Below, one piece after another: positions 909-17,137 of a DNA stretch of 18,126 bases. The stretch lies in the IMG/VR virus record IMGVR_UViG_2671180699_000003. One strand, 5' to 3'. This DNA comes from a virus (Duplodnaviria; Heunggongvirae; Uroviricota; Caudoviricetes). The notes under the pieces were generated by a model. The model was not told the DNA's origin, made no database searches, and saw only the letters and a program-made list of their open reading frames with translations. Each line of letters begins with the position of its first letter. Position 1 is the stretch's first letter. The translations under genes were made by a program, and so were the position numbers.

Positions 909-1141
909 ATTTATCTTCACCTCATCAATCTGCCATTTTTGCTGTATCTGATTTTCTATATTATCTTAATTCAATCGCTTCAGACTTTTCGCAATCGCCG
1001 TAATATTTCCCCATTTTGTTGTAAATAAAAAGCGTTTACGCAATGCAATCCTTTTGTAACAACCCAGGTAAAACACCTTATTTTCAAGTTGTTAAATAAG
1101 TGGTTATCTACGCTTTTAACAAACGATTGATGGAATATTTT

Positions 1142-1252
1142 ATGAAAGGGAAATCTGCATTAACTCTTCTGCTCGCTGGTATATTTTCGTGCGGCACATG
1201 CCAGGCGACAGGGGCAGAAGTGACGAGTGAATCTGTATTTAACATTCGGTAA
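1142..1252 (+). CDS. tiny ORF (36 aa) with signal-peptide-like N-terminus; possible gene remnant
   Basis: ATG at 1142, product MKGKSALTLLLAGIFSCGTCQATGAEVTSESVFNIR. No convincing SD. AT-rich region just before the N gap. Too short for the ORF track. Confidence 0.2.
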   Translation: MKGKSALTLLLAGIFSCGTCQATGAEVTSESVFNIR

Positions 1253-1302
1253 TGACTCCAACTTATTGATAGTGTTTTATGTTCAGATAATGCCCGATGA
1301 CT

Positions 1303-1312
1303 NNNNNNNNNN
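1303..1312. other. assembly gap (10 N) - scaffold/contig junction
   Basis: Run of 10 ambiguous bases in the sequence; the flanks differ in composition and gene content. Confidence 0.95.
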
Positions 1313-1363
1313 TGCGGGTGCTGTGTAATGGAAATAAAAAGGCCACCTGACGTGGACACCAGA

Positions 1364-2416
1364 TTATTTCCCCACCAGCTCGTTTATCTCTTTCACTGTC
1401 TGGTTAAACCGCTCTGACTCAAGCTCAACACCTAAGGCCCGACGCCCCAGCGCCATTGCTGCTTTTATTGTGGAACCGGATCCCATAAAAAAATCAGCAA
1501 CCAGATCACCAGGTCGACTACTGGCATTGATTATTTGCCTGAGCATATCCGCCGGTTTCTCACACGGATGTTTACCCGGGTAGAACTGAACGGGTTTATG
1601 CATCCAGACATCGGTATAAGGCACGGAGACTGATACGGAGAAATAGCGCCGGAGAGATTTAAACTCATCCAGCAATTCAGAATATTTGCGATTCAGTGAA
1701 TCATAAGATGCCACCAGCTGGTGGTGTGGTTGTTCCAGTTGTTGTTCCTGAAACTTCTCTGCCGCTATACGGGAAAACAGTGCCTGTAACTTCCGATAGT
1801 CAGCCTCATTCGGCAACTGCCACTGACTGGCACCAAACCAGTGGGAAACCATATTTTTCTTACCTGTGGCTTCGGCAATTTGTTTTGCCGTTATACCCAG
1901 TTCGGCACGAGCATCCCTGAAATACGATATCAGCGGTGCCATTATGTGCTGTTTGAGTTCCCTTTCTTTTGCCGCATAGCCGTCACTTTTGCCGCGATAT
2001 GGCCCCTGGTAATGTTCAGCAAACAGAACGCGCTCTGTGGCAGGAAAATATGCGCGCAGACTTTCTTTATTACACCCATTCCAACGTCCGGACGGCTTCG
2101 CCCAGATGATATGGTTAAGCACGTTGAAACGTTCACGCATCATGATCTCAATATCAGATGCCAGGCGATGCCCACAGAACAGGTAAAGGCTTCCGGCAGG
2201 TTTTAACACCCGCCAGAACTGGGCCAGACAGTGGTCCAGCCACTTAAGGTAATCTTCGTCCCCTTTCCACTGATTGTCCCAGCCGTTGGGTTTCACCTTG
2301 AAGTACGGCGGATCGGTAACAATCAGGTCAATGGAATCATCAGGCAGGGACTGAATAAAATGCAGGCAATCAGCGTTGATTAAATCAGCACTGTTTATTT
2401 TTACAGTATTTTTCAT
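1364..2416 (-). CDS. DNA methyltransferase, beta-class amino-MTase (N6-adenine or N4-cytosine), 350 aa
   Basis: ATG start. N-terminal motif IV DLIVTDPPY and C-terminal motif I FFMGSGST (order IV...I is beta-class). No restriction endonuclease nearby, so it looks like an orphan phage MTase. Confidence 0.8.
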   Translation of the reverse strand: MKNTVKINSADLINADCLHFIQSLPDDSIDLIVTDPPYFKVKPNGWDNQWKGDEDYLKWLDHCLAQFWRVLKPAGSLYLFCGHRLASDIEIMMRERFNVLNHIIWAKPSGRWNGCNKESLRAYFPATERVLFAEHYQGPYRGKSDGYAAKERELKQHIMAPLISYFRDARAELGITAKQIAEATGKKNMVSHWFGASQWQLPNEADYRKLQALFSRIAAEKFQEQQLEQPHHQLVASYDSLNRKYSELLDEFKSLRRYFSVSVSVPYTDVWMHKPVQFYPGKHPCEKPADMLRQIINASSRPGDLVADFFMGSGSTIKAAMALGRRALGVELESERFNQTVKEINELVGK

Positions 2417-2566
2417 GGATCAGTAAGCGTAACTCTGGTAGGCTCACTCTGCTTTTGCGCTAAAGCAGTGGGCCGTGGTTCGCTTGTGACCAGTAAGCAT
2501 GAGCGAATGGCTGGCAGGTGCTACCAACACCCACCAGCCGCCCATTTTCACAGCAGGAAACCGCCA

Positions 2567-2794
2567 TTACTGGCAGCGTCTGAATTTATTCCCGTACCCG
2601 CCGTTATCCTTCGCCAGACCCGCCAGAACTAACTGAGTCAGTATTAACTGGCACCGGGCTTCGCTTACTCCGGTAGTTCTCGTCATCATGCGTGGCGTTA
2701 CCCACTTGTCAGCAGGTAAGAAATGAAGGACTGCGGCGGCGGTTTCTGTCATATCTTGCTGTTTTAGCATGTCTTTTTCCCTTCTGGTTAACAT
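2567..2794 (-). CDS. hypothetical small protein (75 aa, or 67 aa from an internal ATG at 2770)
   Basis: ORF lying between a strong terminator and the MTase. Weak SD at the first ATG; the start is uncertain. Confidence 0.4.
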   Translation of the reverse strand: MLTRREKDMLKQQDMTETAAAVLHFLPADKWVTPRMMTRTTGVSEARCQLILTQLVLAGLAKDNGGYGNKFRRCQ

Positions 2795-2892
2795 GACATA
2801 CCAATAACTCTTGTCTAAAAATCCAGCAAGATAAAAAGTCAGTATTCACGACCACCAGCGTGTTTACTGTACTGCACCAAGTTTACAGGTAC

Positions 2893-2917
2893 AAAAAACC
2901 CGCTCAGTGGCGGGTTT
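2893..2917 (-). terminator. rho-independent terminator (tR'-like position)
   Basis: On the minus strand: stem CCCGC / loop CACTGA / stem GCGGG followed by TTTTTT. Lies downstream of the 205-aa gene. Confidence 0.55.
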
Positions 2918-3046
2918 AAGTTGTGTGGCGAAGTAACCACTCTTAACACACTAATAGCATTTTTGTTATAACACAAGTAGCTCATTCAGTATTTTTAGAA
3001 TCTTGACTTTCTTAAGCACGGCGAACTCTGAATACCAAACATAAAA

Positions 3047-3664
3047 TCAATTATCTTCCAGGCCGGATGCTATCAACGAAAGCCTCTCAAAAAACGCTGT
3101 AGCAGCCTTGTCCAAAGTTGAATAAGTACTGTATTCTCCGTGTTCGGGACCAACCACTACCCATGGTCGTCTTTTTGGGATTCGGGACTTCTCAGAAATC
3201 ACTGTTCCAGATATACCAATATCAATTGTTACACCTGTTATTATTTTCTCTTCATCTCTTTCCCTGAACTCAATTGCCATAAATGCCGTTTTTTTTCGTT
3301 TCCCGTTTTTAAAAAAATCAAATAAAGCAAAGCGATGCTCATTAAAATCAACACCCCATCGTCCTTCAGGATAAAGGGCATGAAAGTTGTCATTTACGCT
3401 CTGCATCGTCTCATAAGCTTTAACTTCTAAATCTCCATAGTGCATAGATACCGCGCAGGAGTCACTGGGTAACTGTATTTTCCCAAGATTGAAAACCTTT
3501 ACTGCTCCAGAACTATGGCATCTTGCCCGCAATTTATCCCCATTTATACTAATCGGAGAAATATTCCTTAATGTTCCGGGCTGGCTCCCTCCTAAGTAAA
3601 CGACTGTTAAAGATTGCTTATTTTCAATTGCATCAACTAATACATGCTCTACATTTTTATCCAT
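3047..3664 (-). CDS. hypothetical cargo protein, 205 aa, with a possible N-terminal WYL-like beta-barrel
   Basis: Start set at the ATG at 3664 (MDKNVEHV...), which has a GGGAGG SD 7 nt upstream, rather than the ORF-track start at 3691. The segment LTVVYLGGSQPGTLRNISPISINGDKLRARCHSSGAVKVFNLGKIQL resembles the WYL pattern by eye. AT-rich compared with its neighbours. Confidence 0.55.
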   Translation of the reverse strand: MDKNVEHVLVDAIENKQSLTVVYLGGSQPGTLRNISPISINGDKLRARCHSSGAVKVFNLGKIQLPSDSCAVSMHYGDLEVKAYETMQSVNDNFHALYPEGRWGVDFNEHRFALFDFFKNGKRKKTAFMAIEFRERDEEKIITGVTIDIGISGTVISEKSRIPKRRPWVVVGPEHGEYSTYSTLDKAATAFFERLSLIASGLEDN

Positions 3665-3665
3665 A

Positions 3666-3702
3666 ATAACCTCCCGATGAACAGGTATCATCAGGAGGTT
3701 AT
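3666..3702 (-). promoter_or_regulatory. 15-bp hairpin sequestering the SD of the 205-aa gene
   Basis: Inverted repeat ATAACCTCC(C/T)GATGA ... TCATC(A/G)GGAGGTTAT with a 7-nt loop. The GGGAGG SD sits in one arm and the start codon lies 1 nt beyond the stem. Confidence 0.5.
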
Positions 3703-3739
3703 AATAAAATATGATTATTTACTTTGATTGAATTTATTA

Positions 3740-4111
3740 CTATATGTAACAATCAATTTCTAAAGATACCCCCAACATTGCCAGACAACCGTCAATAAAC
3801 CCTTCAGCTTTCTGCAGTCTGATAACAACCTGATTAAGTGATATCCCCAGTTTTACCCCCAACGCCCGTAATGTAACCCCATACACATAATACATTTCCA
3901 GTAATTCGTATTGATACGGTTCCTTTTTCTTAAGAACTGTCATTGCAGAGCTAATGATCAGGCCATCGTCATCGCTACATTGCGGGCGGGATTTTACTTT
4001 CGAAGGAATTAATCCCTTAAAACCTGCAGCAACAGATGACCATTCCACATCCTCGTGATTATTTGCCACCCATGCCCCCCAACGTTCAAGAACCATTTGA
4101 ATATCACGCAT
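3740..4111 (-). CDS. quuD: late-gene antiterminator Q (QuuD-like), 123 aa
   Basis: Product MRDIQMVLERWGAW..NNHEDV.WSS.AAGFKGLI.SKVKSRPQC.DDDG... matches my recollection of DLP12 QuuD. ATG at 4111 has a GGAGA SD; the ORF-track start at 4126 is a TTG. Confidence 0.8.
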   Translation of the reverse strand: MRDIQMVLERWGAWVANNHEDVEWSSVAAGFKGLIPSKVKSRPQCSDDDGLIISSAMTVLKKKEPYQYELLEMYYVYGVTLRALGVKLGISLNQVVIRLQKAEGFIDGCLAMLGVSLEIDCYI

Positions 4112-4128
4112 CAACTTTCTCCACAAAA

Positions 4129-5124
4129 TCAGGCCAGCACGCCTATTGCCAGCGCACGATCGATAAAACGAAATATCAGCTCCAGCTGGGAGCCATACTT
4201 CTCTTCAAATGCCACGGTATCCGCATGCAGCTCGTCGTGATGCTTTCTGCACAAAGGCAACACAAAGAGGTCATGCGCTTTTGTACCCATTCCACCCTGA
4301 CCGTGGCCTATCAGGTGGTGGGGATCATCAGCAGGCTTTCCACAACATGCACACGGCTGTGTCTTAACCCAGCGCGTGTACTTTTCATTAACCCAGCGGC
4401 GGCGTTTTGGGCGTAACATAAAAGACTCCGGCGACTCCGGATCCACTTTCAGCGCCAGCACCTTTTTCGCTTTATCCTGGATGATGCTGGTGGCAGGAAC
4501 CGAAGGCACAAGGTCACTCTCCCGGGTGACAGACGGCACAACAGGTTTCGGTAATCTCAGCGCCTTACGGGCTGCGCTTTCAGGTAAGGCATCCGCCAGG
4601 TCATTACGAATCAGCCACCAGCACAGTTCCGGCATTGTCACGGCATGGTTATCATCAAAACCGAGATCCCGACGGACTACAGACAACACCCAGCGGGCAC
4701 AGTTATCCGTTGCCATTGATTCCAGCCGTTCCGTGAACTGATCGCGCAGCTGGTTATCGCAGTGCCAGCACAGACGGATTGCGCCCGGAGCGTGTCGCAT
4801 TGTGGTCATGTTCTCGCTGTGCCAGTCGGAATGAGGCCACTGGCAGCCTTTTTCACGAAGTAACCAGCTTTCAAGACATTCCACGCCACCAGCACGACGG
4901 ATCACTGCCTCATTGCGGAACACGGCCCGAACGGCAGGATCATCCGCCAGCGGTTGTGATACCGCCGGAACGGCACCACTGGCGAAAGATGAATAACGTT
5001 CCGGCTCAGGCTCCAGCAGGACACGCCCCTGCATAAACAGGGGCATCAGCTCTGAACCTGGCCTGAACAATACGATCCCCATACGCGGGGCAATTTCAGG
5101 GGTCAGTAGTGCTCTCACGGTCAC
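4129..5124 (-). CDS. DUF968-like nin-region protein with C-terminal HNH-like Cys/His motif, 331 aa
   Basis: C-terminal CACCGKPADDPHHLIGHGQGGMGTKAHDLFVLPLCRKHHDELH. GTG start. Sits between the KilA-N gene and Q. Confidence 0.5.
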   Translation of the reverse strand: MTVRALLTPEIAPRMGIVLFRPGSELMPLFMQGRVLLEPEPERYSSFASGAVPAVSQPLADDPAVRAVFRNEAVIRRAGGVECLESWLLREKGCQWPHSDWHSENMTTMRHAPGAIRLCWHCDNQLRDQFTERLESMATDNCARWVLSVVRRDLGFDDNHAVTMPELCWWLIRNDLADALPESAARKALRLPKPVVPSVTRESDLVPSVPATSIIQDKAKKVLALKVDPESPESFMLRPKRRRWVNEKYTRWVKTQPCACCGKPADDPHHLIGHGQGGMGTKAHDLFVLPLCRKHHDELHADTVAFEEKYGSQLELIFRFIDRALAIGVLA

Positions 5125-5125
5125 C

Positions 5126-5935
5126 TCAATGAACGGTATCGAGCAGCTTTAACAGCTCAGGGAATCGGGATTCGAAGAAATGCGGCTGCGTCTCACGCGG
5201 ATTTGCGGGACTGGTGATGTTCTTGCCGAACATGCAGCCTTTCGCCGTCAGCGACCAGAATTTTTTGATGTTGTTAATCCCGGTACGGCTGTATCGTTCG
5301 CGCTGCTCGACGATCCCCAGCTTCACCATCTGGTGATATGCCTGATTAGCCGTCAGGCGGATACCATACTGCTTCAGCAGTGCACTCAGCGACAGCGTCG
5401 GGCGGCTTGAGCCATCAGGCGCGTCAGCAGGTGCATCAATGGCATAGCGCGGTGCCAGATTCGGTAAGCCAACAGCCTCCTGGAGTTTCTGACAGGCACC
5501 AAGCACTGAAGAGTTAGACAGATTTAACTCCCGGCGCATAAAGTCCAGCAGGATCACGCCAGCCTGCATCTTGTCAGCAGCCTGTCCGGATAACTTTTCC
5601 GGCGCGCTGGTTACCATATCGAAAGTACGGATCACCTTCAGATGGAATGACGGGCTGATCCACATTGCATAGGCATACACCAGTTCCTTACAGACATACG
5701 TTCCCCGTTCATTTCCCCCATGAATCACACTCACCGGGTCAACACCCAAATTCTGGGTGTTGGTTAATTCATGAACAAGCTCAACAGTTTGTTGGCTGGA
5801 AAGAAACTTTCCTGGCTCCTTGGTTCTGGCATTTGCACCAGATGCTACTGCTGCGCGATGCAGATCGTTCAGGCTGTAACGCCCATAAGCATCACGACGA
5901 ACTTCAATACCATCAATGACCATCAGATTATTCAT
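5126..5935 (-). CDS. KilA-N domain protein (antirepressor-like), 269 aa
   Basis: N-terminal KilA-N-like region (VIDGIEVRRDAYGRYSLNDLHRAA...). GAGGAG SD 9 nt upstream of the ATG. Confidence 0.6.
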   Translation of the reverse strand: MNNLMVIDGIEVRRDAYGRYSLNDLHRAAVASGANARTKEPGKFLSSQQTVELVHELTNTQNLGVDPVSVIHGGNERGTYVCKELVYAYAMWISPSFHLKVIRTFDMVTSAPEKLSGQAADKMQAGVILLDFMRRELNLSNSSVLGACQKLQEAVGLPNLAPRYAIDAPADAPDGSSRPTLSLSALLKQYGIRLTANQAYHQMVKLGIVEQRERYSRTGINNIKKFWSLTAKGCMFGKNITSPANPRETQPHFFESRFPELLKLLDTVH

Positions 5936-5954
5936 ACTTCGTTTCTCCTCTTAA

Positions 5955-6344
5955 TCAGGCAGCTGCACCCGCCGTTTTCTCGTACTTACTGATAGTGATC
6001 TCGACCTTCCCTTCCGGGATAACCGGTCCCCACTCCACCAGCATTCTTTTCACCTGACTGTCGTCTTCCCACACCCCCGCGTGGGTCAGGGCGTCAAACA
6101 GCGCCTTGTTATAGTTGTCCAGATCGCGGATCCTGTTATCCGGAGGAAACAACACGATCTCCACTGAAGCAGGTGCCGACGTTGGTTTCGGCAGACGACG
6201 TAACTGCTCAACTATTGCTGCACACGCCGCGCTCTGGAATTTGCGCCCCGCCGCGCTTATCAGGCTCTTACCTGCAAACGCCACTTTGTTGGGGTGTCGC
6301 CAGTACGTGTTCACGCTGGGCGGAAAAGGCAGTATTAGCTTCAT
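5955..6344 (-). CDS. rusA: RusA Holliday junction resolvase
   Basis: 129 aa with LPFPPSVNTYWRH and RDLDNYNKALFDALTHAGVWEDDSQV, matching the RusA family catalytic region. Confidence 0.85.
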   Translation of the reverse strand: MKLILPFPPSVNTYWRHPNKVAFAGKSLISAAGRKFQSAACAAIVEQLRRLPKPTSAPASVEIVLFPPDNRIRDLDNYNKALFDALTHAGVWEDDSQVKRMLVEWGPVIPEGKVEITISKYEKTAGAAA

Positions 6345-6667
6345 ACTTTCAGGCCCCTCTCATGTAACCAGTGGGCTGCACGCAACCTGGCGTTCTCCTC
6401 ACCGGCAAGCAGTGCGCGGATGATACCGACCGCCTCGCTGTCGTCGTCCTTCACCGCGGTATGAAGCGTGATGCCCCGGGCCACGCCACGCTTTATCGTG
6501 ATGACGCCTTTTTTCTCCAGTGCGCGAAGATGCTCCACCGCTGCATTCACTGAACGGTATCCCAGCATGGTTGCCACCTCCTGATTGGTTGGCGGGAAGC
6601 CACGTTCTTTCTGATAAGAAATCAGCATATCCAGCACCTGCTGCTGGCATTGAGTTAACGTCGTCAT
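6341..6667 (-). CDS. LexA N-terminal DNA-binding domain protein (no S24 peptidase domain), 108 aa
   Basis: QQQVLDMLISYQKERGFPPTNQEVATMLGYRSVNAAVEHLRALEKKGVITI closely parallels the LexA winged-helix N-terminus. ATGA overlap with rusA. Confidence 0.65.
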   Translation of the reverse strand: MTTLTQCQQQVLDMLISYQKERGFPPTNQEVATMLGYRSVNAAVEHLRALEKKGVITIKRGVARGITLHTAVKDDDSEAVGIIRALLAGEENARLRAAHWLHERGLKV

Positions 6668-7317
6668 GCCGCCATCTCCCTGACCAGTTTTTCTGCCTGC
6701 TGGCGAACCTGCGCCAGAAAGGCCTCACCACATGCCTCAAGTTCATCGCGCCCGATGTAGCTGATTGCCGGTCCCTTCCAGGTCTTGTCGAAAACAGCAA
6801 TAGCACCAGCGAAGAAAGCGCCTGTCGGCACCTGCTTCTCATCCTTCGGGATAAACCAGGCAGGCAGTTCAAAACCAATACGCCCGCGAATAAAAGCAAT
6901 ATGATCTGCATCTTCCGGCCACCACACTTCGCTGGTGGCAGCTTTGATCAGGAAAACATAGCGCCCGCCTTTATCACGCATGGCACTGGCATGCTTCATG
7001 ATGTAACGCATGCCGGTGATGTATTGCCCCTCATGCTGACTGGCGCGGCTGTATGGGGGATTACCAAAGGCAGCACCTTTAAGCTCCGCAAGGCGTTCTG
7101 ACCAGTCATGCGCCAGCGCGTTGTCTTCCGCCGTGTAATACGCAGCACATTTGGCGTTATCACCGTCAGTGAACAGATCCAGAACAAACGGGCCAAACAG
7201 GGTGTTAATTCCCCAGAAAATGTTGTCCGGCGTGCGCCACTGATCGCCCACTTCCTTCAGTTCATGGGCTGGTTTGTTCCGCAGTTCCGCCAGCGCCTGG
7301 CAATATTTATTACTCAT
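6664..7317 (-). CDS. phage Dam-like N6-adenine DNA methyltransferase, 217 aa
   Basis: NPPY catalytic motif (FGNPPYS). Start set at ATG 7317 (MSNKYCQ...), which overlaps the upstream stop as TAATG, rather than the GTG at 7350. Confidence 0.7.
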   Translation of the reverse strand: MSNKYCQALAELRNKPAHELKEVGDQWRTPDNIFWGINTLFGPFVLDLFTDGDNAKCAAYYTAEDNALAHDWSERLAELKGAAFGNPPYSRASQHEGQYITGMRYIMKHASAMRDKGGRYVFLIKAATSEVWWPEDADHIAFIRGRIGFELPAWFIPKDEKQVPTGAFFAGAIAVFDKTWKGPAISYIGRDELEACGEAFLAQVRQQAEKLVREMAA

Positions 7318-7805
7318 TAAGCCCCCACGTAATTCCCTGAGAGATACCACTCTTCACCTGATGCAGCCCGCTTACTGCTTTTCCGTAAACACCGTTCACG
7401 ACGCGCCAGAAAATTGTTTCGTTCTGGCTGGGAGTGGCTTTCACGGAATGCCGCCATCCACACCGTTGCAGCACGACGGTATAAGCCCCTCGACTCCAGT
7501 TCTTCAGCCTGGCGGGTCAGGCACAAAATCACCCGGGGGTCGTTAGTGCCGACATAGAACTTGCGCACAGGTCTGGTTTCACGAACTGGTTGTGGTTCCG
7601 GCTCCTGCGCTCTCTCAGTCAGGCGCGAGAAATGTCTGCGTGTATCTCCTTCACAACGGTGAGCCACACGCCCACTCTGACGTAACTTGCTTGCTGACTG
7701 CAGAACGCGCTGCCGTGAGTAACCTGCAAAAGCATCCGCAATGTCTCCGGAAGTACAGCCCGGATGGGCTTCAATGAATTTCTGAACTTCATTCAAAATA
7801 CTCAT
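7317..7805 (-). CDS. PerC-family transcriptional regulator-like protein, 162 aa
   Basis: C-terminal LESRGLYRRAATVWMAAF resembles the PerC/Pch signature (GLWRRAA..W). ATG at 7805 has a GGGGTGA SD; the ORF-track start at 7811 is a GTG. Confidence 0.5.
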   Translation of the reverse strand: MSILNEVQKFIEAHPGCTSGDIADAFAGYSRQRVLQSASKLRQSGRVAHRCEGDTRRHFSRLTERAQEPEPQPVRETRPVRKFYVGTNDPRVILCLTRQAEELESRGLYRRAATVWMAAFRESHSQPERNNFLARRERCLRKSSKRAASGEEWYLSGNYVGA

Positions 7806-7807
7806 GC

Positions 7808-8800
7808 TCACCCCCTGAATCCTGCCGGGATCTGGCTGTAGTCCACGTTGTCGTAACTGGATTTGAAATATGGGTCTTCGCGTTTTTCTGTGTATGTGCT
7901 GACGGACGGCGATAAGCGCAGGGAAAGCTCATCCCATTTTTCCCGCAGCTTCGACGGGCTGAGCACGTTACGGCACCAGAACGGATCGCGGCTGACGCGG
8001 CTGTACATCTCGCAGATTTGTTTGTGAGTACGACCATCCTGCACACACATCAGGCGAATTTCGTTTGCCCAGGCTGTCCAGTTCGGTTCTTTGGGACGAA
8101 CCACCTCGCCGTCACATTCGGCGGCCTGCTCGTACAGGGCGATGATTTTTTTCCAGAGCCACTGTGCGCAGGTCAAATCATCCTGCGTTCCCCACTGGCG
8201 CTTTTTAGGGCTGAATACAACCGCATCAGGATGGCGAGTTAAAAACTCCTGTTCAGCCGTTTGCGTGTCCGGTTGCGAAGCGTCCGGACGAGAAGAGGTT
8301 TTATTCTCTGTAGTAATCTCTGTTGTATTCTCTGTAAGATCATTGGGCCATTTTGACCCGATGACAGCGTGTCGTTTTGAACCAATGGATCGTGTCATTT
8401 TGCGCCCATCCATCAGGTCACTTTGACCCGATGGAGAAGTGCATTTTGACCTGATGGATTCGTTCACTTTGACCTCTTCTAAAAGCTCACTTTCATAGTT
8501 GATCGTGTAGAAGTTGGTCATGTCACGCTTCGATTTATTGAGTTGCTCGCGACGCAAAACCCCAAGTGATTTCAGGCTTGCAAATGTGCGTTTCAGAGTG
8601 GACTCTGACCAGAACGGAAACTGCTCCAGCCACTGTTCTGTCGTGTTATAAACCCAGCGAATTCCGCCATGCTCAGTGCCTGAATTCGTTTCATTCAGCC
8701 AGTAATGAAGCTGCTGCAACACAATTGCCTCATTCAGACCAATACGGCATGCAAGATCACGATTTATCACAATGGGCTGGGATGTCATTAACAGGCTCAT
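7808..8800 (-). CDS. replication initiation protein (lambda O-like organizer with a conserved phage C-terminal domain), 330 aa
   Basis: N-terminal winged-helix replication-protein motif and a conserved phage C-terminal region (PFWCRNVLSPSKLREKWDELS). Iterons lie inside the coding sequence. GGAGGTG SD upstream. Confidence 0.7.
   Translation of the reverse strand: MSLLMTSQPIVINRDLACRIGLNEAIVLQQLHYWLNETNSGTEHGGIRWVYNTTEQWLEQFPFWSESTLKRTFASLKSLGVLRREQLNKSKRDMTNFYTINYESELLEEVKVNESIRSKCTSPSGQSDLMDGRKMTRSIGSKRHAVIGSKWPNDLTENTTEITTENKTSSRPDASQPDTQTAEQEFLTRHPDAVVFSPKKRQWGTQDDLTCAQWLWKKIIALYEQAAECDGEVVRPKEPNWTAWANEIRLMCVQDGRTHKQICEMYSRVSRDPFWCRNVLSPSKLREKWDELSLRLSPSVSTYTEKREDPYFKSSYDNVDYSQIPAGFRG
8349..8476. 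repeat. origin iterons: about five direct repeats CAYTTTGACCYGATGGA at 23-24 bp spacing
   Basis: Copies at 8349, 8373 (degenerate), 8419, 8442 and 8465 (partial), plus an inverted partial copy TCCATCAGGTCA at 8409-8420. They fall in the linker region of the O-like gene, as in lambda ori. Confidence 0.65.
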
Positions 8801-9021
8801 GCCGCACCTCCGAGATGCTTCATGTTTTTTCCGGAGCGAAAGGCTATAAGCGGCATACTGACGCGGTAATTACGGCCCAGCGGTTCACAAATCACCTTCT
8901 GACATTCACGGTCAACCAGGCTAACACGTAGAACATGCCCTGCAGGCGTGGTGTACCACTGACCGGGGCGAGGACAACGGAAAGTCTGATTGGTAAATCG
9001 TTTGAAAATATTCCGGATCAT
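8797..9021 (-). CDS. hypothetical protein, 74 aa
   Basis: AAGGGGG SD 5 nt upstream; ATGA overlaps with both neighbours. Confidence 0.4.
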   Translation of the reverse strand: MIRNIFKRFTNQTFRCPRPGQWYTTPAGHVLRVSLVDRECQKVICEPLGRNYRVSMPLIAFRSGKNMKHLGGAA

Positions 9022-10166
9022 TTGCGCCCCCTTACCTCTGAAGAGTTCAGCGACGAATGAATAAGACGGGCAAGAAATGCCGCATCGTTAATTCGGTCAT
9101 ACAGACTTACAGCCAGAGGTGATTCAGCTTTTTCCAGCATGGGATAAAGCTGCTGCAACCAGACCTGATGAATTGATGAAATGTAGGAATAGAGAACGCT
9201 GGCGTTATGTGCAACGTCGCTCGGTACAGCGGGCTTTGAAAGCTGTTTCTCCATCTGGTTAAAGGCATTGATGTATGCCTCTTTGAACTGGGCAGCACGT
9301 TTACCCGTGAAACCCATAGCAAGAAACGCAAAGCCGTCGCGGGTTATTTGATAGCAAGGTAGTTTGCGGCCTGTGCAATCGGTGTAATCACTCACCGAAA
9401 AATTGCGGGCAGTGAATGATGCGGAACATTCAAGCGTGCGGATCTTTTTCAGTACATCGTCATGACGTTTGGAGAAGAAGTTGGCAACAGCCAGGGATGA
9501 AGTAACAGCCTGACCATCAACGATGGCAATTTCAGGTTGAGTGAGGGTTGGGATCGTAGCCATGATGGCAGTCTCCGATAACAGTGAATTACCTTCACCA
9601 CCGGAAACGCCAATTTCGCTGGTGGTGAACTGAACGGGGTTGGCGTAACCGGCGTTATCGGAAACCGGCGCACCTTTCGGTGCCCCCGTCCAGCCCACCA
9701 TAATTTGGGTGTGCACAGACGCAGACGATAAAAAAGACGCTGGCGCGTCATATATCGCCGATAACATTTCCAGGACGCCAATCCCGACACCCGCTTTATA
9801 AGGTGCCTGAACAGTGTAACGTCCCGGAATGGCAGAATCAATGTGCTGGTGGTCCTTCACACTCAACAAAATCACGCCTGAATTTCCACAAAGGACTAAA
9901 GCACTCATGCGGGTAGTCTTTGCGAAGATAGATAACGCGCTGTGTTTCTGGCTCCCAACGAATAACATGGACATAAAGCCCTCTTCCGTCACGAAACCAG
10001 CGGTTAAGTTCCTGCACAACTCGCCCCCCACAGTCAGGTAAAGTTCTCTGTGGTTACTTACAGCCAGGTGATTTGGTAATCTGCATTCATGCCGTAACAA
10101 CAGGTGTTCAGCGACGCTGACCACCAGCTGTTGCGACAAACGGTTATTTGCCGTTAAACTGTTCAT
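9018..10166 (-). CDS. Rha-family phage regulatory protein with a ~200-aa N-terminal extension (382 aa; alternative internal start at 9563 gives 181 aa)
   Basis: Rha-like motifs QAVTSSLAVANFFSKRHDDVLKKIR and ITRDGFAFLAMGFTGKRAAQFKEAYINAF begin at residue ~202. The ATG at 9563 has a GGAGA SD, but the frame stays open upstream to an ATG at 10166 that overlaps the upstream stop (ATGA). Confidence 0.55.
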   Translation of the reverse strand: MNSLTANNRLSQQLVVSVAEHLLLRHECRLPNHLAVSNHRELYLTVGGELCRNLTAGFVTEEGFMSMLFVGSQKHSALSIFAKTTRMSALVLCGNSGVILLSVKDHQHIDSAIPGRYTVQAPYKAGVGIGVLEMLSAIYDAPASFLSSASVHTQIMVGWTGAPKGAPVSDNAGYANPVQFTTSEIGVSGGEGNSLLSETAIMATIPTLTQPEIAIVDGQAVTSSLAVANFFSKRHDDVLKKIRTLECSASFTARNFSVSDYTDCTGRKLPCYQITRDGFAFLAMGFTGKRAAQFKEAYINAFNQMEKQLSKPAVPSDVAHNASVLYSYISSIHQVWLQQLYPMLEKAESPLAVSLYDRINDAAFLARLIHSSLNSSEVRGRK

Positions 10167-10726
10167 GCGTTAGTTTCTCCACAGACACAAAACGCCACGA
10201 CGCCCGGAGCTGCACACTCGCGGGCGTCACTCTTTTCTGGAGCGCAAAAGATTTTGTAGACCAGTGCTGCATGCTCCTGGAGCTTCGAAATTGACAGATA
10301 CAACTCATCATTAATTGCTGTCTGCTCGTGTGGCTCCACTACCCCATCTTCGATTGCCGAACGAATCTGCTTTGAGTAACTCCCGATCTGTTCGATGACT
10401 TCCAGCAGGCGCTGGTTTATATCGGCGTTCTCTACTTCCTCAAGTTCAGGAAGCGATACAAACACCCCACCAGCAGACTGTGCGACAGCATCCGCAATGT
10501 AGTGAGTGCCAGCCGCGCGCTGTAAAATCATTGCCCATCCCAGCGGGAAAATCTGATCGCCATCTGCACGAAGGCGGTTGAATAAAGCGTTCTCTGTTAC
10601 ATCCAGCCACTCAGCAGCTTCAGCGTAACCTCCCGGCAACGCCGCGATAGTTTTTCTGACAGCTTTCACGTACCACTCAGGCTGTTTTTCTACTTTCCAG
10701 TGATGCTTACCCACGGTTAGCCTCAT
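10163..10726 (-). CDS. hypothetical regulator at the CII position (possibly YdaT-like), 187 aa
   Basis: First gene after cro. HTH-like segment GGYAEAAEWLDVTENALFNRLR followed by a predicted helical region. A GTG at 10714 with a GAGG SD is a possible alternative start. Confidence 0.35.
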   Translation of the reverse strand: MRLTVGKHHWKVEKQPEWYVKAVRKTIAALPGGYAEAAEWLDVTENALFNRLRADGDQIFPLGWAMILQRAAGTHYIADAVAQSAGGVFVSLPELEEVENADINQRLLEVIEQIGSYSKQIRSAIEDGVVEPHEQTAINDELYLSISKLQEHAALVYKIFCAPEKSDARECAAPGVVAFCVCGETNA

Positions 10727-10757
10727 CGTTCTGTGGTTAAAAATTGAAGGTGTTCTG

Positions 10758-10958
10758 TTAATCTTTCGGATAGATATCCGGTCTTAAGTCAGATTTCGTA
10801 ATTGCACCTGACGTGCATTGCTCAAGTTTTTTAGCCAGCACAAAACTGGCTTTTTTATAACCATTGAAAACCAGCCGTAAGTAGCCTGGTGTTGAGCCAA
10901 CTTTTCCGGCCAACTCGCCCTGCTGTTCTTTGGTTAAAGAGTCCCAATACGCTTTCAT
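10758..10958 (-). CDS. Cro-like repressor, 66 aa
   Basis: Internal ATG at 10958 with a GGAGG SD; the longer ORF-track version overlaps cI. Small HTH protein diverging from the cI-like gene. Confidence 0.65.
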   Translation of the reverse strand: MKAYWDSLTKEQQGELAGKVGSTPGYLRLVFNGYKKASFVLAKKLEQCTSGAITKSDLRPDIYPKD

Positions 10959-11048
10959 ACAATATGTACCTCCGATATACATATTACATGATTGAGATGA
11001 ACCTTCAAGATACTTGTACCCTATCGGTACAAAGGTTTTAATTTCGTT
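10959..11048. promoter_or_regulatory. immunity-region OR: divergent PR/PRM candidates with a palindromic operator
   Basis: Palindrome TTGTACC-ctatc-GGTACAA at 11014-11032. PRM candidate TTGTAC-N17-TTTAAT ending at a leaderless cI ATG. PR candidate on the minus strand: TTGAAG-N17-TAATAT. Confidence 0.45.
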
Positions 11049-11723
11049 ATGAAAACAGTCCATGACATCCGGCGGTCTAACGCCAGAAAACTGAGAGATG
11101 GTGTTGGCGGGAATTCTTCCTTTGCCACCATGATTGATCGCGAGCCAACCCAGACCAGCAGGTTTATGGGAGATGGTGCTACTAAAAATATCGGTGACAG
11201 CATGGCACGGCACATCGAAAAATGTTTCGACCTGCCTGTCGGATGGCTTGATCAAGAACACCAGACAACAAACATCACAAAAAAACCTGATGTTTCAATT
11301 ACTAACAAACAAATAACGTTAGTCCCTGTCATATCATGGGTACAGGCCGGAGCATGGAAAGAAGTTGGCTATTCTGAGGTTGATTTGAGCACAGCAGAAA
11401 CTTATCCCTGCCCTGTACCCTGTGGCGAAATGACTTATATCTTGCGGGTGATTGGTGATTCAATGATTGATGAGTACCGCCCGGGAGACATGATTTTTGT
11501 TGATCCTGAAGTCCCTGCCTGCCACGGTGACGACGTTATTGCATTGATGCACGATACAGGCGAAACCACCTTCAAGCGGTTGATAGAAGATGGAACACAG
11601 CGTTACCTCAAAGCATTAAACCCAAACTGGCCTGAACCTTACATTAAGATCAACGGTAATTGCTCTATAATTGGTACAGTGATTTTCTCAGGAAAACCAA
11701 GAAGATACAAAATAAAGGCCTAA
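11049..11723 (+). CDS. CI-like phage repressor (N-terminal HTH, C-terminal S24 LexA-type autopeptidase), 224 aa
   Basis: C-terminal GDSM (Ser nucleophile) and TFKRL (Lys) S24 motifs; HTH-like N-terminus; divergent from cro. Confidence 0.85.
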   Translation: MKTVHDIRRSNARKLRDGVGGNSSFATMIDREPTQTSRFMGDGATKNIGDSMARHIEKCFDLPVGWLDQEHQTTNITKKPDVSITNKQITLVPVISWVQAGAWKEVGYSEVDLSTAETYPCPVPCGEMTYILRVIGDSMIDEYRPGDMIFVDPEVPACHGDDVIALMHDTGETTFKRLIEDGTQRYLKALNPNWPEPYIKINGNCSIIGTVIFSGKPRRYKIKA

Positions 11724-11734
11724 TCAATATTTAT

Positions 11735-11757
11735 AACCTGCTTCGGCAGGTTTTTTT
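11735..11757 (+). terminator. rho-independent terminator after cI
   Basis: Stem CCTGC / loop TTCG / stem GCAGG followed by TTTTTTT. Confidence 0.55.
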
Positions 11758-11761
11758 ATAC

Positions 11762-11795
11762 TTGACAATGTACCCTTGAGATACATAATGTATCT
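11762..11795 (+). promoter_or_regulatory. pL-like promoter with overlapping operator palindrome (OL)
   Basis: Consensus -35 TTGACA at 11762-11767, 16-nt spacer, -10 CATAAT at 11784-11789. Perfect palindrome AGATACAT-a-ATGTATCT at 11779-11795 overlaps the -10. Confidence 0.55.
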
Positions 11796-12226
11796 AAAAG
11801 AAACATAACACAGGCAAGATTAAACTAAATTTGGTTGTAACACGGCGTATGGCACATGCGTCGTTAGCGGTCTGGGGACGTTAAAGGGGACAATCCACTC
11901 CTTGCTCGAGCAAACAAACCAGGTAGCCGGAATGTGCAAGTCAATGATGATGCTGATAAGACGCCTAACCAGCGTGGCGATTCGGTTTGACGCCTGGGAA
12001 GAGACCAGGGTGCAACGATGAGGGCATTTATGGAACCGCGACAAAGTGTGGTGCCGTAACTGGCTAAGTGCTCTCAGCGTTGTGGTGAATGCGCAGGCTG
12101 ATGCGCGAAAGACATTGCAGCTATTGCGGAAAAGAGCTGTTCGGCGGGGCAATTAAACGCCCGTGAGAGTCTGAAATAACCGCAAGCCGGAGATCAGCAC
12201 CGGTCACCACAACAGCCACTGCTTTG

Positions 12227-12272
12227 GCGGTACCAGTTTGTACACTTGCTTCCGGCTGGTACCGCTCTTTTT
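12227..12272 (+). terminator. terminator-like hairpin in the pL leader
   Basis: 10-bp stem GCGGTACCAG ... CTGGTACCGC with a 19-nt loop, followed by TCTTTTTA. Confidence 0.4.
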
Positions 12273-12409
12273 ACAAAACAGAGAAGAGCATCACCGGACG
12301 ACGGGCTCATAACCCAATCCATCCGGGCGGCTGCCACCGCAGGTGTTCTTCTCTGTTTTGTGGAGAAACTAACCGACCTTGCAGGGTCGATATGATGAGG
12401 AGCAGCAAA

Positions 12410-12772
12410 ATGGCTAGCGAACGCAGTACTGATGTGCAGGCATTTATCGGGGAGCTGGACGGCGGCGTATTTGAAACCAAAATCGGCGCAGTTCTCAGTG
12501 AAGTCGCTTCCGGTGTGATGAACACGAAAACCAAAGGTAAGGTCTCGCTCAACCTGGAAATCGAACCATTTGATGAGAACCGTGTGAAAATCAAACACAA
12601 ACTCTCATATGTTCGCCCGACTAACCGCGGGAAAATTTCCGAAGAAGACACCACCGAAACACCGATGTATGTCAATCGCGGTGGTCGCCTGACTATTCTG
12701 CAGGAAGACCAGGGACAATTACTGACTCTTGCCGGTGAACCTGACGGAAAACTACGCGCAGCAGGTCATTAA
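12410..12772 (+). CDS. yfdP: YfdP-like hypothetical prophage protein, 120 aa
   Basis: ATG at 12410 with a GAGGAG SD; the upstream TTG extension is rejected. Length and position (immediately before a YfdQ-like gene) match K-12 CPS-53 yfdP. Confidence 0.5.
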   Translation: MASERSTDVQAFIGELDGGVFETKIGAVLSEVASGVMNTKTKGKVSLNLEIEPFDENRVKIKHKLSYVRPTNRGKISEEDTTETPMYVNRGGRLTILQEDQGQLLTLAGEPDGKLRAAGH

Positions 12773-12837
12773 TATCGTTCTTAATTAACTGATTATTTAT
12801 CTCATCACTGAATATCTTTATATAGTGAGGACTGATT

Positions 12838-13662
12838 ATGTCTCATAACTTAGACGCAACCGCAATTAATCAAATCCATGCCCTTATTTCTGCTCAGGGT
12901 GTTAATGAAATCATCAGTAAGATTGGTGCCGATGCTGTGGCATTGCCTGAGAATTTCCGCATTCATGATCTGGAAAAATTTAATTTAAATCGTTTCCGTT
13001 TCCGTGGTGCGCTTTCCACTGCCAGCATCGATGACTTTACCCGTTATTCTAAAGATCTTGCAGATGAAGGCACCCGCTGCTTTATCGATGCCGATAATAT
13101 GCGTGCCGTCAGTGTGCTTAACCTGGGTACTATTGATGAGCCAGGTCACGCAGATAACACTGCCACTCTCAAACTGAAAAAGACAGCACCGTTCTCTGCT
13201 CTGTTGTCTGTTAATGGCGAGCGTAACTCCCAGAAGTCACTGGCAGAATGGATTGAAGACTGGGCCGACTACCTTGTGGGCTTTGATGCTAATGGTGACA
13301 CCATTCAGGCAACCAAAGCGGCTGCGGCGATCCGTAAAATCACAATTGAAGCGAACCAGACCGCTGATTTTGAAGATAATGACTTCAGCGGCAAACGCTC
13401 CCTGATGGAGTCTGTCGAAGCGAAGACCAAAGACATTATGCCAGTGGCATTTGAATTTAAATGCGTTCCGTTTGAAGGCCTGAAAGAACGTCCATTTAAA
13501 TTACGCCTCAGCATTATCACTGGCGATCGTCCTGTACTGGTTCTGCGCATTATTCAGCTGGAAGCGGTGCAGGAAGAAATGGCTAACGAATTTCGTGATC
13601 TGCTTGTTGAGAAATTCAAAGACAGCAAAGTAGAAACCTTTATTGGTACTTTCACCGCCTGA
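12838..13662 (+). CDS. yfdQ: YfdQ-like protein (DUF2303), 274 aa
   Basis: 274 aa, the same length as K-12 YfdQ; gene order yfdP-yfdQ-yfdR; AGTGAGGA SD. Confidence 0.65.
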
Positions 13663-13674
13663 TTTCATTACTGC

Positions 13675-13696
13675 AAATGCCCCTGCGGGGGCATTT
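13675..13696 (+). terminator. hairpin (possible attenuator or weak terminator) between the yfdQ-like and yfdR-like genes
   Basis: Perfect 9-bp stem AAATGCCCC / loop TGCG / GGGGCATTT, followed by ATGG rather than a clean U-tract. Confidence 0.3.
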
Positions 13697-13789
13697 ATGG
13701 AAACGTAATTAACTCAATAATCACCGAATGGTGAGGGCTTCCTTTTACCAGAATTCAGCGCGGTGCAGTGCATATACGTGGAGAACAAA

Positions 13790-14326
13790 ATGTCATTTAT
13801 TAAAACTTTTTCCGGGAAGCATTTTTATTATGACAAGATAAATAAAGACGACATCGTTATTAACGATATCGCGGTTTCCCTTTCAAATATCTGTCGCTTT
13901 GCAGGACATCTTTCACACTTCTACAGCGTCGCCCAACATGCGGTGCTTTGCAGCCAGCTGGTACCGCAGGAATTTGCTTTTGAAGCGTTAATGCATGATG
14001 CAACAGAAGCATATTGTCAGGACATCCCCGCACCACTGAAACGCCTTCTTCCTGACTATAAACGGATGGAAGAAAAAATAGACGCCGTAATCCGTGAGAA
14101 ATACGGGTTACCTCCTGTTATGAGCACGCCAGTGAAATATGCCGATCTCATTATGCTGGCAACCGAACGCCGCGATCTCGGGCTTGATGATGGTTCTTTC
14201 TGGCCTGTACTGGAAGGTATCCCGGCGACAGAGATGTTCAAAGTTATTCCACTGTCACCAGGCCATGCCTACGGGATGTTTATGGAACGTTTTAACGAGT
14301 TATCGGGGTTACGCAAATGCGCATGA
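13790..14326 (+). CDS. yfdR: YfdR-like HD-domain phosphohydrolase, 178 aa
   Basis: ATG at 13790 with a GGAGA SD. His/Asp residues spaced as in an HD domain (AGHLSH...HDATEAY...D). 178 aa, the same length as K-12 YfdR. Confidence 0.65.
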   Translation: MSFIKTFSGKHFYYDKINKDDIVINDIAVSLSNICRFAGHLSHFYSVAQHAVLCSQLVPQEFAFEALMHDATEAYCQDIPAPLKRLLPDYKRMEEKIDAVIREKYGLPPVMSTPVKYADLIMLATERRDLGLDDGSFWPVLEGIPATEMFKVIPLSPGHAYGMFMERFNELSGLRKCA

Positions 14327-14904
14327 ATGTTTTCGAAATGGAAGGGTTTCTTCGCGGGAAATGTGTACCGCGAGATCTGAAAGTGAACGAAACAAACGCT
14401 GAGTACCTGGTGCGTAAATTTGCTGAAGCTGAGGCCAAGTGCGCGGCGCTGGCTGAACGTATCGAAGAGTTACAGACAAAACCTACGCCAGATTCGTTTG
14501 GCATCATCGGTGAAAACATTCGAACACAGGATAATCGAATAACGTCAGACCCTATGTTTTGTGTGTATCAAAAGCGCGAAATTGTTGTTGATGCTGATTA
14601 TGACTATGACCGGATTGTCTGGGTTGATGAAGATAGCAATGAAGCCAATAAACTCCAAAGTCGTCGTCTCGAACTACTTCATGAAAACTTTCGGGAACCA
14701 CCAGAAAAATGGCGGCGCGTTGCTGTGAAAGATATTGATGAATTCGTTACCTGCTGTTTCACCGAACAGGGTTGTAAAGACTACCTGGCAGCCAATGGTC
14801 ACAATCTTCGCTTGCCATTTATATATGTAAAAAGCGGTTTCAGGAACGCTGAATATATCGGCATAAGAAACTGGCTTGCTGGCATTCGCATCAAAGGAGA
14901 GTGA
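14317..14904 (+). CDS. hypothetical phage protein, 195 aa
   Basis: Start overlaps the yfdR-like stop; an ATG at 14323 is an alternative start. No family recognised. Confidence 0.5.
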   Translation: MRMNVFEMEGFLRGKCVPRDLKVNETNAEYLVRKFAEAEAKCAALAERIEELQTKPTPDSFGIIGENIRTQDNRITSDPMFCVYQKREIVVDADYDYDRIVWVDEDSNEANKLQSRRLELLHENFREPPEKWRRVAVKDIDEFVTCCFTEQGCKDYLAANGHNLRLPFIYVKSGFRNAEYIGIRNWLAGIRIKGE

Positions 14905-14905
14905 G

Positions 14906-15097
14906 ATGATCGGACAAATATCAATTGTTCGACCGGGAGCATGTGACGATCGCGAGATACGAATGATTATTCGTCTGGCAATAGGGAAAACAATAACTGC
15001 TCTCATTACTCCTGAAAATCTCGCATTAGCGTTAACAGGAAAGTCAGACCTGCCAGTAGAGCTAAAGCTGCGAAATATTGAGATTAAAGTGAAATAG
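14906..15097 (+). CDS. hypothetical small protein, 63 aa
   Basis: ATG at 14906 with an AAAGGAGAG SD, 2 nt after the upstream stop. Confidence 0.4.
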   Translation: MIGQISIVRPGACDDREIRMIIRLAIGKTITALITPENLALALTGKSDLPVELKLRNIEIKVK

Positions 15098-15099
15098 TT

Positions 15100-15987
15100 A
15101 TGAATACTCTTACCAAAGAATGGTTACAGAACACGATTACCGGAATTGAGTCGATAATAGACGATAAATCGTTTGTATGTAGTGAAATAGCATTCGAAAT
15201 AGGTGTGGTTAACAACATACTTACCGCATTTAAAATTGCACTGGCATCGCTGGAAGCAGATCCAGTTGCTTATATTTTCAAACATCCGGCCGGGAAATTA
15301 TTCTGGGCTTTAACTGATGAAAGCAATAAAGAGCAAGCTGACGTTATTCCTGTTTATGCTGCCGCGCCTGCGTCGGTTGTGCCGGATAATGCATCAGAGC
15401 CTCTTGCTTATGCTTACAAAGAGCTTACGCCTGAGATTATGCGCAACCATTTAGCTGTATTCGAGCGATATGGAATAGCCCCAAACGATAGCTCTACCAC
15501 AATTCAGGCACTGCGAATCGCGCTGGATGGCATAGAGCGGAGCGGCGCCATGCTTCATGGTGCCGAACCTGTAAGCCAAACTTACAAGTTGCCTCCCCTG
15601 TCATCCAACGAAGTAAACGACGCGGCATGGAAATTACGCAACATGCTTACTGAACACGGTCCTCTTAATGGGCGTCAGTTCAACAATCTGAAAGGTTGCT
15701 TCTATGAGGCATTAAAGGTCGCAATGCGCAACTATCCGGTAACTCCGGATAGTTGGATAAGCTGTAGTGATCGAATGCCAGAAATGGGAGAGCGACAATG
15801 CTATGCGTTAGCGGCTGACTTTAAAAACAACTACCCGCCACACATCCCCAACACTCAGGTCGGCGTATATGGCGACTGGTTTAATGATGGCGATCCCACT
15901 TGGGTTGACGGTGATGGCGAAGACCTGTATCTCAAAGAGGTAACCCACTGGATTCCGCTACCAGAACCGCCGCAGGAGGTGAAGTGA
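15100..15987 (+). CDS. DUF551 domain-containing phage protein, 295 aa
   Basis: C-terminal WISCSDRMPE ... VTHWIPLPEPP is typical of DUF551. Confidence 0.6.
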   Translation: MNTLTKEWLQNTITGIESIIDDKSFVCSEIAFEIGVVNNILTAFKIALASLEADPVAYIFKHPAGKLFWALTDESNKEQADVIPVYAAAPASVVPDNASEPLAYAYKELTPEIMRNHLAVFERYGIAPNDSSTTIQALRIALDGIERSGAMLHGAEPVSQTYKLPPLSSNEVNDAAWKLRNMLTEHGPLNGRQFNNLKGCFYEALKVAMRNYPVTPDSWISCSDRMPEMGERQCYALAADFKNNYPPHIPNTQVGVYGDWFNDGDPTWVDGDGEDLYLKEVTHWIPLPEPPQEVK

Positions 15988-16559
15988 TGAACAACTTAAT
16001 GATCGACCTTGAGACGATGGGGAAAAATAAGGATGCACCGATCGTTTCCATTGGCGCGGTGTTCTTCACTCCAGAAACCGGAGACATCGGACAAGAATTC
16101 TATACGGTTGTTAGCCTGGAAAGTGCTATGGGGCAAGGAGCTACACCTGACGGCGATACCATCCTGTGGTGGTTGAAACAAAGCCCTGAAGCACGAGCTG
16201 CAATCTGTATTGATGATACTTTGTCGATCAGCGATGCTCTCTCAGAACTAAATCATTTCATTAACCGGCACGCAGACAATACGAAATATTTAAAAGTCTG
16301 GGGTAACGGAGCCACCTTCGACAACGTAATTTTACGTGGAGCTTATGAGCGAGCAGGACAAATCTGTCCGTGGGCATACTGGAATGACCACGATGTACGC
16401 ACGATCGTTACGCTTGGGCGTTCCATCGGATTCGACCCCAAAATGGACATGCCTTTCGATGGCGAACGGCACAACGCCATGGCTGATGCCCGTCATCAGG
16501 CAAAATATGTTTCCGCTATCTGGCAGAAATTAATTCCTGCCACCAGCACAGAATTATGA
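15984..16559 (+). CDS. DEDDh-type 3'-5' exonuclease, 191 aa
   Basis: N-terminal Exo I motif MIDLETMG; C-terminal GERHNAMADARH resembles the H-x4-D Exo III motif. Confidence 0.7.
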   Translation: MMNNLMIDLETMGKNKDAPIVSIGAVFFTPETGDIGQEFYTVVSLESAMGQGATPDGDTILWWLKQSPEARAAICIDDTLSISDALSELNHFINRHADNTKYLKVWGNGATFDNVILRGAYERAGQICPWAYWNDHDVRTIVTLGRSIGFDPKMDMPFDGERHNAMADARHQAKYVSAIWQKLIPATSTEL

Positions 16560-16595
16560 TTTTCCCGGGTGCAGCCGGTTTTGATGGAGAAAATT

Positions 16596-16877
16596 ATGAA
16601 CACCTTGTTTTTACTGATGGCTGAATTCAATACCCCTAACATTGAACTCTCAGCAGTTAGCCAAAAGTACTTTGGCATGAGTCCAGCCACGGCAGAAGCA
16701 AAAGCAAACGCTTGTAAGTTGCCCGTTCCAACATATCGCATCGGCACATCACAAAAAGCAAAACGTTGCATCAATATTCAGGATCTTGCGGAATACATAG
16801 ACAAAAGACGAGAAGAAGGACGTATCGAGTGGGAACAGGTCAGAACAAGCAAACAGAAGGGCAAAGAACATCACTAA
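16596..16877 (+). CDS. PrtN/AlpA-like small DNA-binding protein (excisionase-like), 93 aa
   Basis: ATG at 16596 with a GGAGA SD. Product MNTLFLLMAEFNTPNIELSAVSQKYFGMS... Last gene of the plus-strand operon, directly before a terminator. Confidence 0.45.
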   Translation: MNTLFLLMAEFNTPNIELSAVSQKYFGMSPATAEAKANACKLPVPTYRIGTSQKAKRCINIQDLAEYIDKRREEGRIEWEQVRTSKQKGKEHH

Positions 16878-16906
16878 ATAAAAAACCCGCCTAAAGGCGG
16901 GTTTTC
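16878..16906. terminator. bidirectional rho-independent terminator
   Basis: A-run, stem CCCGCC / loop TAAA / stem GGCGGG, then TTTT. Lies between the converging plus-strand operon and the minus-strand module. Confidence 0.6.
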
Positions 16907-16924
16907 AAAAAGCACCAGCTATGA

Positions 16925-17098
16925 TCATGCTGCTTTGCGACGACGAAGCTTACCCTGCTGCTCTTTACCAGAGACAGTAGCGTGAGTGAACGCATTAGGA
17001 GCAGCCTTCATCAGAACTTCAACAGCAGCACCCATACCTGCGAATGCTTTCATTGTGTCGAACTTAACCTGTGGCTTGGTTGCTTTTTGATCTTCCAT
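16925..17098 (-). CDS. small ORF, 57 aa
   Basis: ATG at 17098 with an AGGAG SD 7 nt upstream. Product MEDQKATKPQVKFDTMKAFAGMGAAVEVLMKAAPNAFTHATVSGKEQQGKLRRRKAA. Below the ORF-track length cutoff. Confidence 0.4.
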   Translation of the reverse strand: MEDQKATKPQVKFDTMKAFAGMGAAVEVLMKAAPNAFTHATVSGKEQQGKLRRRKAA

Positions 17099-17137
17099 AG
17101 AAAACTCCTGAAGTTATACCGAAACAATTCCTGTTGT

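Follow-up and report, generated by a model that had tools for sequence, protein, structure and literature searches.

Ten Ns Between glyU and a Lambdoid Prophage in an Escherichia coli Scaffold: A Probable Assembly Join at Two Multi-Copy Elements

The Join at 1303–1312

We analysed an 18,126-nucleotide stretch of DNA (the window), in which the tRNA gene glyU stands close to part of a lambdoid prophage. The two are separated by a run of exactly ten Ns, and the rest of the window is free of N. Our analysis indicates that these Ns very probably connect two contigs that are not physical neighbours, in a draft E. coli assembly built from short reads. From the sequence on each side, rather than from direct observation, we infer that the contigs flanking the N run almost certainly lie apart on the chromosome. 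Each flank breaks at the start of a multi-copy element, which is IS1 on the left and a shared phage lysis cassette on the right. Because each contig stops where a multi-copy element begins, the adjacency of tRNA and prophage would be an artefact.

The original prediction had taken this adjacency as a statement of the scaffolding, and not as evidence of a prophage integrated at glyU. Our results bear this out. Both contig ends lie at the boundaries of multi-copy elements, and what follows glyU, over 339 nt, is ordinary E. coli sequence from the edge of the ETT2 region, without an att junction. The 3' end of the tRNA has no second copy, either within the window or at the loci of related prophages, and the module at the right end of the prophage is located at dusA in all of the complete genomes with this module.

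The spacer could be the minimum gap of a scaffolder, the product of a reference-guided ordering, or a plain concatenation of contigs. Paired-end scaffolders can write a run of ten Ns as a minimum gap.

The left contig carries actS, glyU and the beginning of ygeQ, and stops 55 nt into an IS1 copy inserted 106 nt into ygeQ. The right contig represents the half of a lambdoid prophage that comprises the early genes and the Q side, starting from the first base past the essD-rrrD-Rz cassette, which this prophage has in common with prophages of the DLP12 type. In the chromosomal arrangement that we propose, position 1302 would continue into the remaining 713 bp of IS1, followed either by the rest of ygeQ and ETT2 or by an IS1-bounded deletion. 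Position 1313 would adjoin the holin gene essD, and after it the lysis, packaging, head and tail genes, the integrase and dusA. The prophage itself would be located in the 5' end of dusA, about 1.3–1.4 Mb from glyU.

The Left Flank: actS, glyU and an Interrupted ygeQ

The following features were recognised up to and including the N run.

1–756, + strand: actS (ygeR), amidase activator lipoprotein gene of the chromosomal backbone; 100% identity to positions 3302–4057 of L001, annotated there as actS
835–908, + strand: glyU, tRNA-Gly(CCC); ARAGORN, Rfam tRNA at 71.6 bits, glyU in the K-12 annotation
909–1141, + strand: spacer between glyU and ygeQ, normal E. coli sequence at the edge of the ETT2 region; 31.8% G+C
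1142–1247, + strand: first 106 nt of ygeQ (putative lipoprotein/GH15-like; first gene on the ETT2 side according to the L001 annotation), cut by IS1
1248–1302, − strand (strand of the transposase): terminal 55 nt of IS1, from the end beside the transposase C-terminus; left contig end; 55/55 identity
1303–1312, no strand: spacer of ten Ns from contig to contig; its length is not a measured distance

We found 100% identity between positions 1–1247 and the prophage-free actS-glyU-ygeQ region on a complete E. coli chromosome (L001). The window holds one tRNA gene left of the gap, which is glyU, and a promoter-like TTGCTA-16-TATAAT is located ahead of it at 790–817. The AT-rich stretch after glyU (909–1247) has a G+C content of 36.3%. 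In K-12, this stretch leads into ETT2 remnants. In another strain (L004), it leads into an intact ygeQ and the type III secretion genes of ETT2, whereas the window has only the first 106 nt of ygeQ. It has been reported that ETT2 adjoins glyU and that glyU is a known island site (PMC3977695). The original prediction had also described the neighbourhood of glyU as the ETT2 island site, and this is in accord with the ETT2 secretion genes that follow ygeQ in other strains (PMC3977695).

According to our alignment, the intact ygeQ runs on at the point where the window changes to IS1, at position 1248. The 55 nt at 1248–1302 agree at all 55 positions with the termini of two IS1 copies (768 bp each) annotated in L001, which assigns them to IS1 by their terminal sequence. 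This IS1 end, inserted 106 nt into ygeQ, had been missed in the earlier reading of the window. The reading frame of ygeQ ends at a TAA (1250–1252) that is contributed by the IS1 end. The window holds 55 nt of the element before the N run, and the far end of IS1 and the target-site duplication lie outside it. We searched 5,426 complete E. coli genomes with a query that included the 55-nt IS1 end and obtained 76,517 match places, with a median of 10 and a maximum of 62 per genome.

The exact junction of ygeQ and IS1 (after ...AACATTC, with the transposase on the − strand) was contiguous in none of the 5,426 complete E. coli genomes, and it had no exact match among the GTDB species representatives. 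IS1 at the edge of ygeQ and ETT2 is nevertheless a known situation, in that many complete E. coli genomes have IS1 inside or just past ygeQ. In two pig isolates, YZ22PE68 and YZ22PE106, an IS1 copy lies 2 bp from the insertion point of the window, in the opposite orientation. The whole ETT2 region is deleted in both isolates, and IS1 abuts yqeG.

It looks as if IS1 targets the 5' part of ygeQ repeatedly (window 1241–1250; L003 3540–3610; L009 3540–3610).

It had been argued that the tRNA points away from the gap. This is wrong, since glyU lies on the + strand and its 3' end (908) faces position 1303. The backbone sequence together with the IS1 end is a better argument than the orientation of the tRNA.

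The Right Flank: A Break Inside the Late Operon

The DNA right of the gap is a late-side segment of a lambdoid prophage, transcribed leftwards. Its features nearest to the join are as follows.

1313–1363, − strand: prophage spacer from the methylase stop codon to the missing holin gene essD; start of the right contig
1364–2416, − strand: cargo DNA methyltransferase gene (N6_N4_Mtase; Pfam PF01555, E = 2.2e-42), between Q and the lysis genes
3740–4126, − strand: late antiterminator gene Q (Pfam PF06530, E = 5.2e-48)

The prophage part of the window (1313–18126) is a mosaic, and its best relatives cover 83–88% of it at 97.5–98.8% identity. In relatives, the methylase of 1364–2416 is annotated as a DNA-methyltransferase. 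Downstream of it, with respect to late transcription, the four relatives whose annotation was read have the holin gene essD, the endolysin gene rrrD and a lysis gene of the Rz type. The genes for the large terminase, portal and capsid come next in three of the four, and tail genes also follow in MARGA_3; the annotation of YZ22PE68 was read only to the packaging gene nohD. A lambdoid late region has Q upstream of holin, endolysin and spanin; Q is in the window, and in the relatives the cassette lies just beyond the base that corresponds to 1313.

In the relatives L002, L005, L006 and L008, the counterpart of position 1313 lies 16 nt upstream of the start codon (ATG) of essD. Therefore, the break lies inside the late operon and not at an end of the prophage, and this accounts for the lack of lysis and structural genes in the window. 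Their absence had already been pointed out and is confirmed here, as the relatives have them immediately left of the equivalent of 1313. The right flank had also been called the Q-distal end of the prophage, and in this respect the earlier reading needs correction, because the break is internal, between the cargo methylase and the holin gene.

We also compared the lysis cassette of a relative with that of the DLP12 prophage of E. coli K-12 (essD-rrrD-rzpD/rzoD), and the two share 94.6% identity over 973 nt. L002 and DLP12 are identical through ...CATAACCCCACCTCGCAGA up to position 20000 of L002, and they diverge at 20001, which is window position 1313. The homology thus stops exactly before 1313, and the cassette itself is absent from the window.

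The whole lysis cassette was present in 5,161 of the 5,426 genomes, at a median of 2 and up to 11 places. A query that combined essD with the junction gave 7,923 match places in 4,348 genomes. The essD-only matches that were sampled stop at query position 230–233, which is at, or within 2 nt of, the boundary base equivalent to 1313. Among the 942 complete genomes that have the methylase end, essD directly abuts it in 690. A location at glyU was found for none of the essD-methylase junctions among the matches listed. The search for an intrinsic terminator after the methylase gave one weak hairpin (1364–1345, − strand), and the count for the region was not above that of the shuffles.

Signatures of the Two Contig Ends

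Contig breaks induced by repeats in short-read assemblies have both ends on multi-copy DNA, and the two ends here are like them, with IS1 on one side and the essD-rrrD-Rz cassette on the other. We infer that the left end, with its 55 nt of IS1, fits the edge of a de Bruijn graph with k = 55. On the side of the lysis cassette, 0 nt of the repeat are kept, and the right contig begins at the first unique base. The 55 nt from 1313 to 1367 always occur with the methylase gene in complete genomes and are not an independent repeat. A k = 55 signature at both ends was considered and rejected for the right end on these two grounds. The asymmetry between the ends (55 nt against 0 nt) is not covered by one assembler behaviour, and it counts against the reading that we propose for the join.

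Integration Site of the Prophage

The feature at the right end of the window is as follows.

17138–18126, − strand: right-end module, consisting of a 139-aa ORF and a Panacea/SocA-like antitoxin gene (Pfam PF13274)

The last base of the window belongs to the start codon of the Panacea/SocA-like gene (17554–18126, − strand), and no prophage end is included. The original prediction had regarded the integration site as not established. This holds for the window itself, which contains neither end of the prophage, but with the help of the relatives the statement can be upgraded to an integration that is very probably in dusA. More exactly, the site would be the 5' end of dusA, and the position of this copy is read from the location of its relatives.

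In MARGA_3, strain 219 and YZ22PE68, the Panacea gene is followed by about 250 nt, a 105-nt remnant of the dusA 5' end, and then yjbM, zur, dinF and lexA. At the far end of the MARGA_3 prophage, a tyrosine integrase gene is located beyond the tail fibres and beside an intact dusA. The first ~107 nt of this intact dusA are only 83% identical to the native remnant, and they therefore represent a surrogate 5' end supplied by the phage. Farrugia et al. (2015) have described dusA-associated integrases of lambdoid prophages that are located in the 5' end of dusA, with an arrangement as in MARGA_3 (PMC4482086). The three relatives all show the arrangement described there. For the window, the remnant would be expected about 250–370 nt past the right edge, and this copy would belong to the dusA-integrated prophages by way of its relatives.

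We found the end module (17138–18126) in 206–208 complete genomes. A contiguous query of the module and the native dusA remnant was covered by at least 80% in 208 complete genomes. Therefore, the module is always located at dusA in complete genomes. One relative, which matches the window only to about position 14420 and has a different integrase module, is located at thrW, which shows that the site of integration goes with the end module. However, the same relative weakens the argument for a dusA location, because these prophages are mosaic and one with another integrase module is found at thrW.

The distance between glyU and dusA in K-12 is 1.263 Mb. In YZ22PE68, where IS1 at ygeQ and the prophage are both present, the chromosome is a circle of 4.83 Mb, and glyU lies 1.435 Mb from the methylase gene.

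We also explored the glyU side. It had been suggested that a direct repeat of the tRNA 3' end should be sought, and this check gave none, either within the window or at the loci of related prophages. A 25-nt probe of the glyU 3' end, with up to 3 mismatches allowed, found only the tRNA itself within the window, and a 20-mer of the same end was absent from the related prophage loci L002 and L005–L008. Directly after the glyU 3' end, we found no element or integrase; positions 909–1247 are ordinary glyU-ygeQ sequence, 100% identical to that of prophage-free strains.

Alternative Explanations

The adjacency could be physically real if IS1 or the prophage had mediated a rearrangement (an inversion, a translocation or a deletion), with the Ns standing for the rest of IS1. 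IS1 does delete DNA at the glyU-ygeQ locus, as in YZ22PE68 and YZ22PE106, where ETT2 is gone through to yqeG, and the ten Ns may be the minimum gap of a paired-end scaffolder. However, such a rearrangement needs an IS1 end at 1313, and the right contig end is without IS1 sequence. Position 1313 is instead exactly at the boundary of a different repeat, where an IS1 junction would fall only by a large coincidence. In addition, essD is beside the equivalent of 1313 in the four annotated relatives, and it is so in the 690 complete genomes counted above. We consider this explanation very unlikely. A large rearrangement in this isolate, for example an inversion or translocation of about 1.3–1.4 Mb with its ends at the IS1 in ygeQ and in the late operon of the dusA prophage, is a little less likely again. 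If it were true, it would set the Q-methylase segment beside glyU and part the prophage from its lysis and structural genes.

It could also be supposed that the prophage is integrated at the 3' end of glyU and that the gap hides the att junction. The glyU 3' end does face the gap, and glyU is a known island site with ETT2 adjoining (PMC3977695). However, over the 339 nt after glyU the window has 100% identity to strains that continue into an intact ygeQ and ETT2, so any island junction at the end of the tRNA is the old ETT2 one. On the prophage side, the gap is bordered by the middle of a late operon and not by an end, a second copy of the tRNA 3' end was not found, and the end module is always at dusA. 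This makes integration at glyU very improbable, and we rejected it on sequence grounds: backbone DNA after the tRNA, no att repeat, and an end module of the dusA type. A small true gap, in which the flanks are contiguous and a few bases are missing, has in its favour the short N run and nothing else. It was rejected as well, because 1302 is the 55th base of an IS1 element of 768 bp, so that no fewer than 713 bp still have to come, while the sequence from 1313 onward has no IS1 similarity beyond chance 11–12-mers. The scenario of 1302 and 1313 being linked across a few bases, which had been named as one that would overturn the scaffolding view, is excluded for this reason, and this explanation is scarcely credible. 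A join between two contigs that are not neighbours is thus the reading that we retain.

Additional Features of the Window

The window starts at the TTG of actS (1–3), its last three bases are the ATG of the Panacea gene (18124–18126), and gene boundaries appear to have set its edges. The 139-aa ORF of the end module (17138–17557, − strand) follows the Panacea/SocA-like gene (17554–18126) and has no Pfam match. The two may constitute a toxin-antitoxin pair, located where the prophage borders the dusA remnant.

There are two DNA methyltransferase genes in the prophage. The N6_N4 gene is located in the cargo slot between Q and the lysis genes. The other is an ORF in the nin-like region (about 6664–7350, − strand), and the relatives annotate it as a phage N-6-adenine methyltransferase. 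A 214-aa ORF (3047–3691, − strand) between Q and the methylase has no Pfam match; one relative annotates it as WYL domain-containing, and the others call it hypothetical. This ORF is cargo at the position where Stx phages carry their toxin genes.

We also detected two Rfam families on the − strand of the prophage, the C4 antisense RNA at 9618–9705 (82.8 bits) and isrK at 9730–9806 (61.5 bits). The region 9618–9806 looks like a P1/P7-type c4-ant immunity module carried by a lambdoid prophage. Both RNAs overlap a 382-aa ORF (9018–10166) that relatives annotate as a Rha-family regulator, and this ORF may have a spurious N-terminal extension. The stretch at about 9576–9782 has no match in the relative MARGA_3.

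Implications

The join is almost certainly an assembly artefact over well-known elements; there is nothing novel in it, and the finding is an ordinary one. Its sole importance is for annotation quality, and it touches no open biological question. Taken at face value, the scaffold would wrongly suggest a prophage integrated at glyU, a prophage without lysis and structural genes, and a 36-codon fragment of ygeQ beside phage DNA. Recognising the double break at repeats avoids a false att site and a false call of a defective prophage, and it moves the question of integration to dusA.
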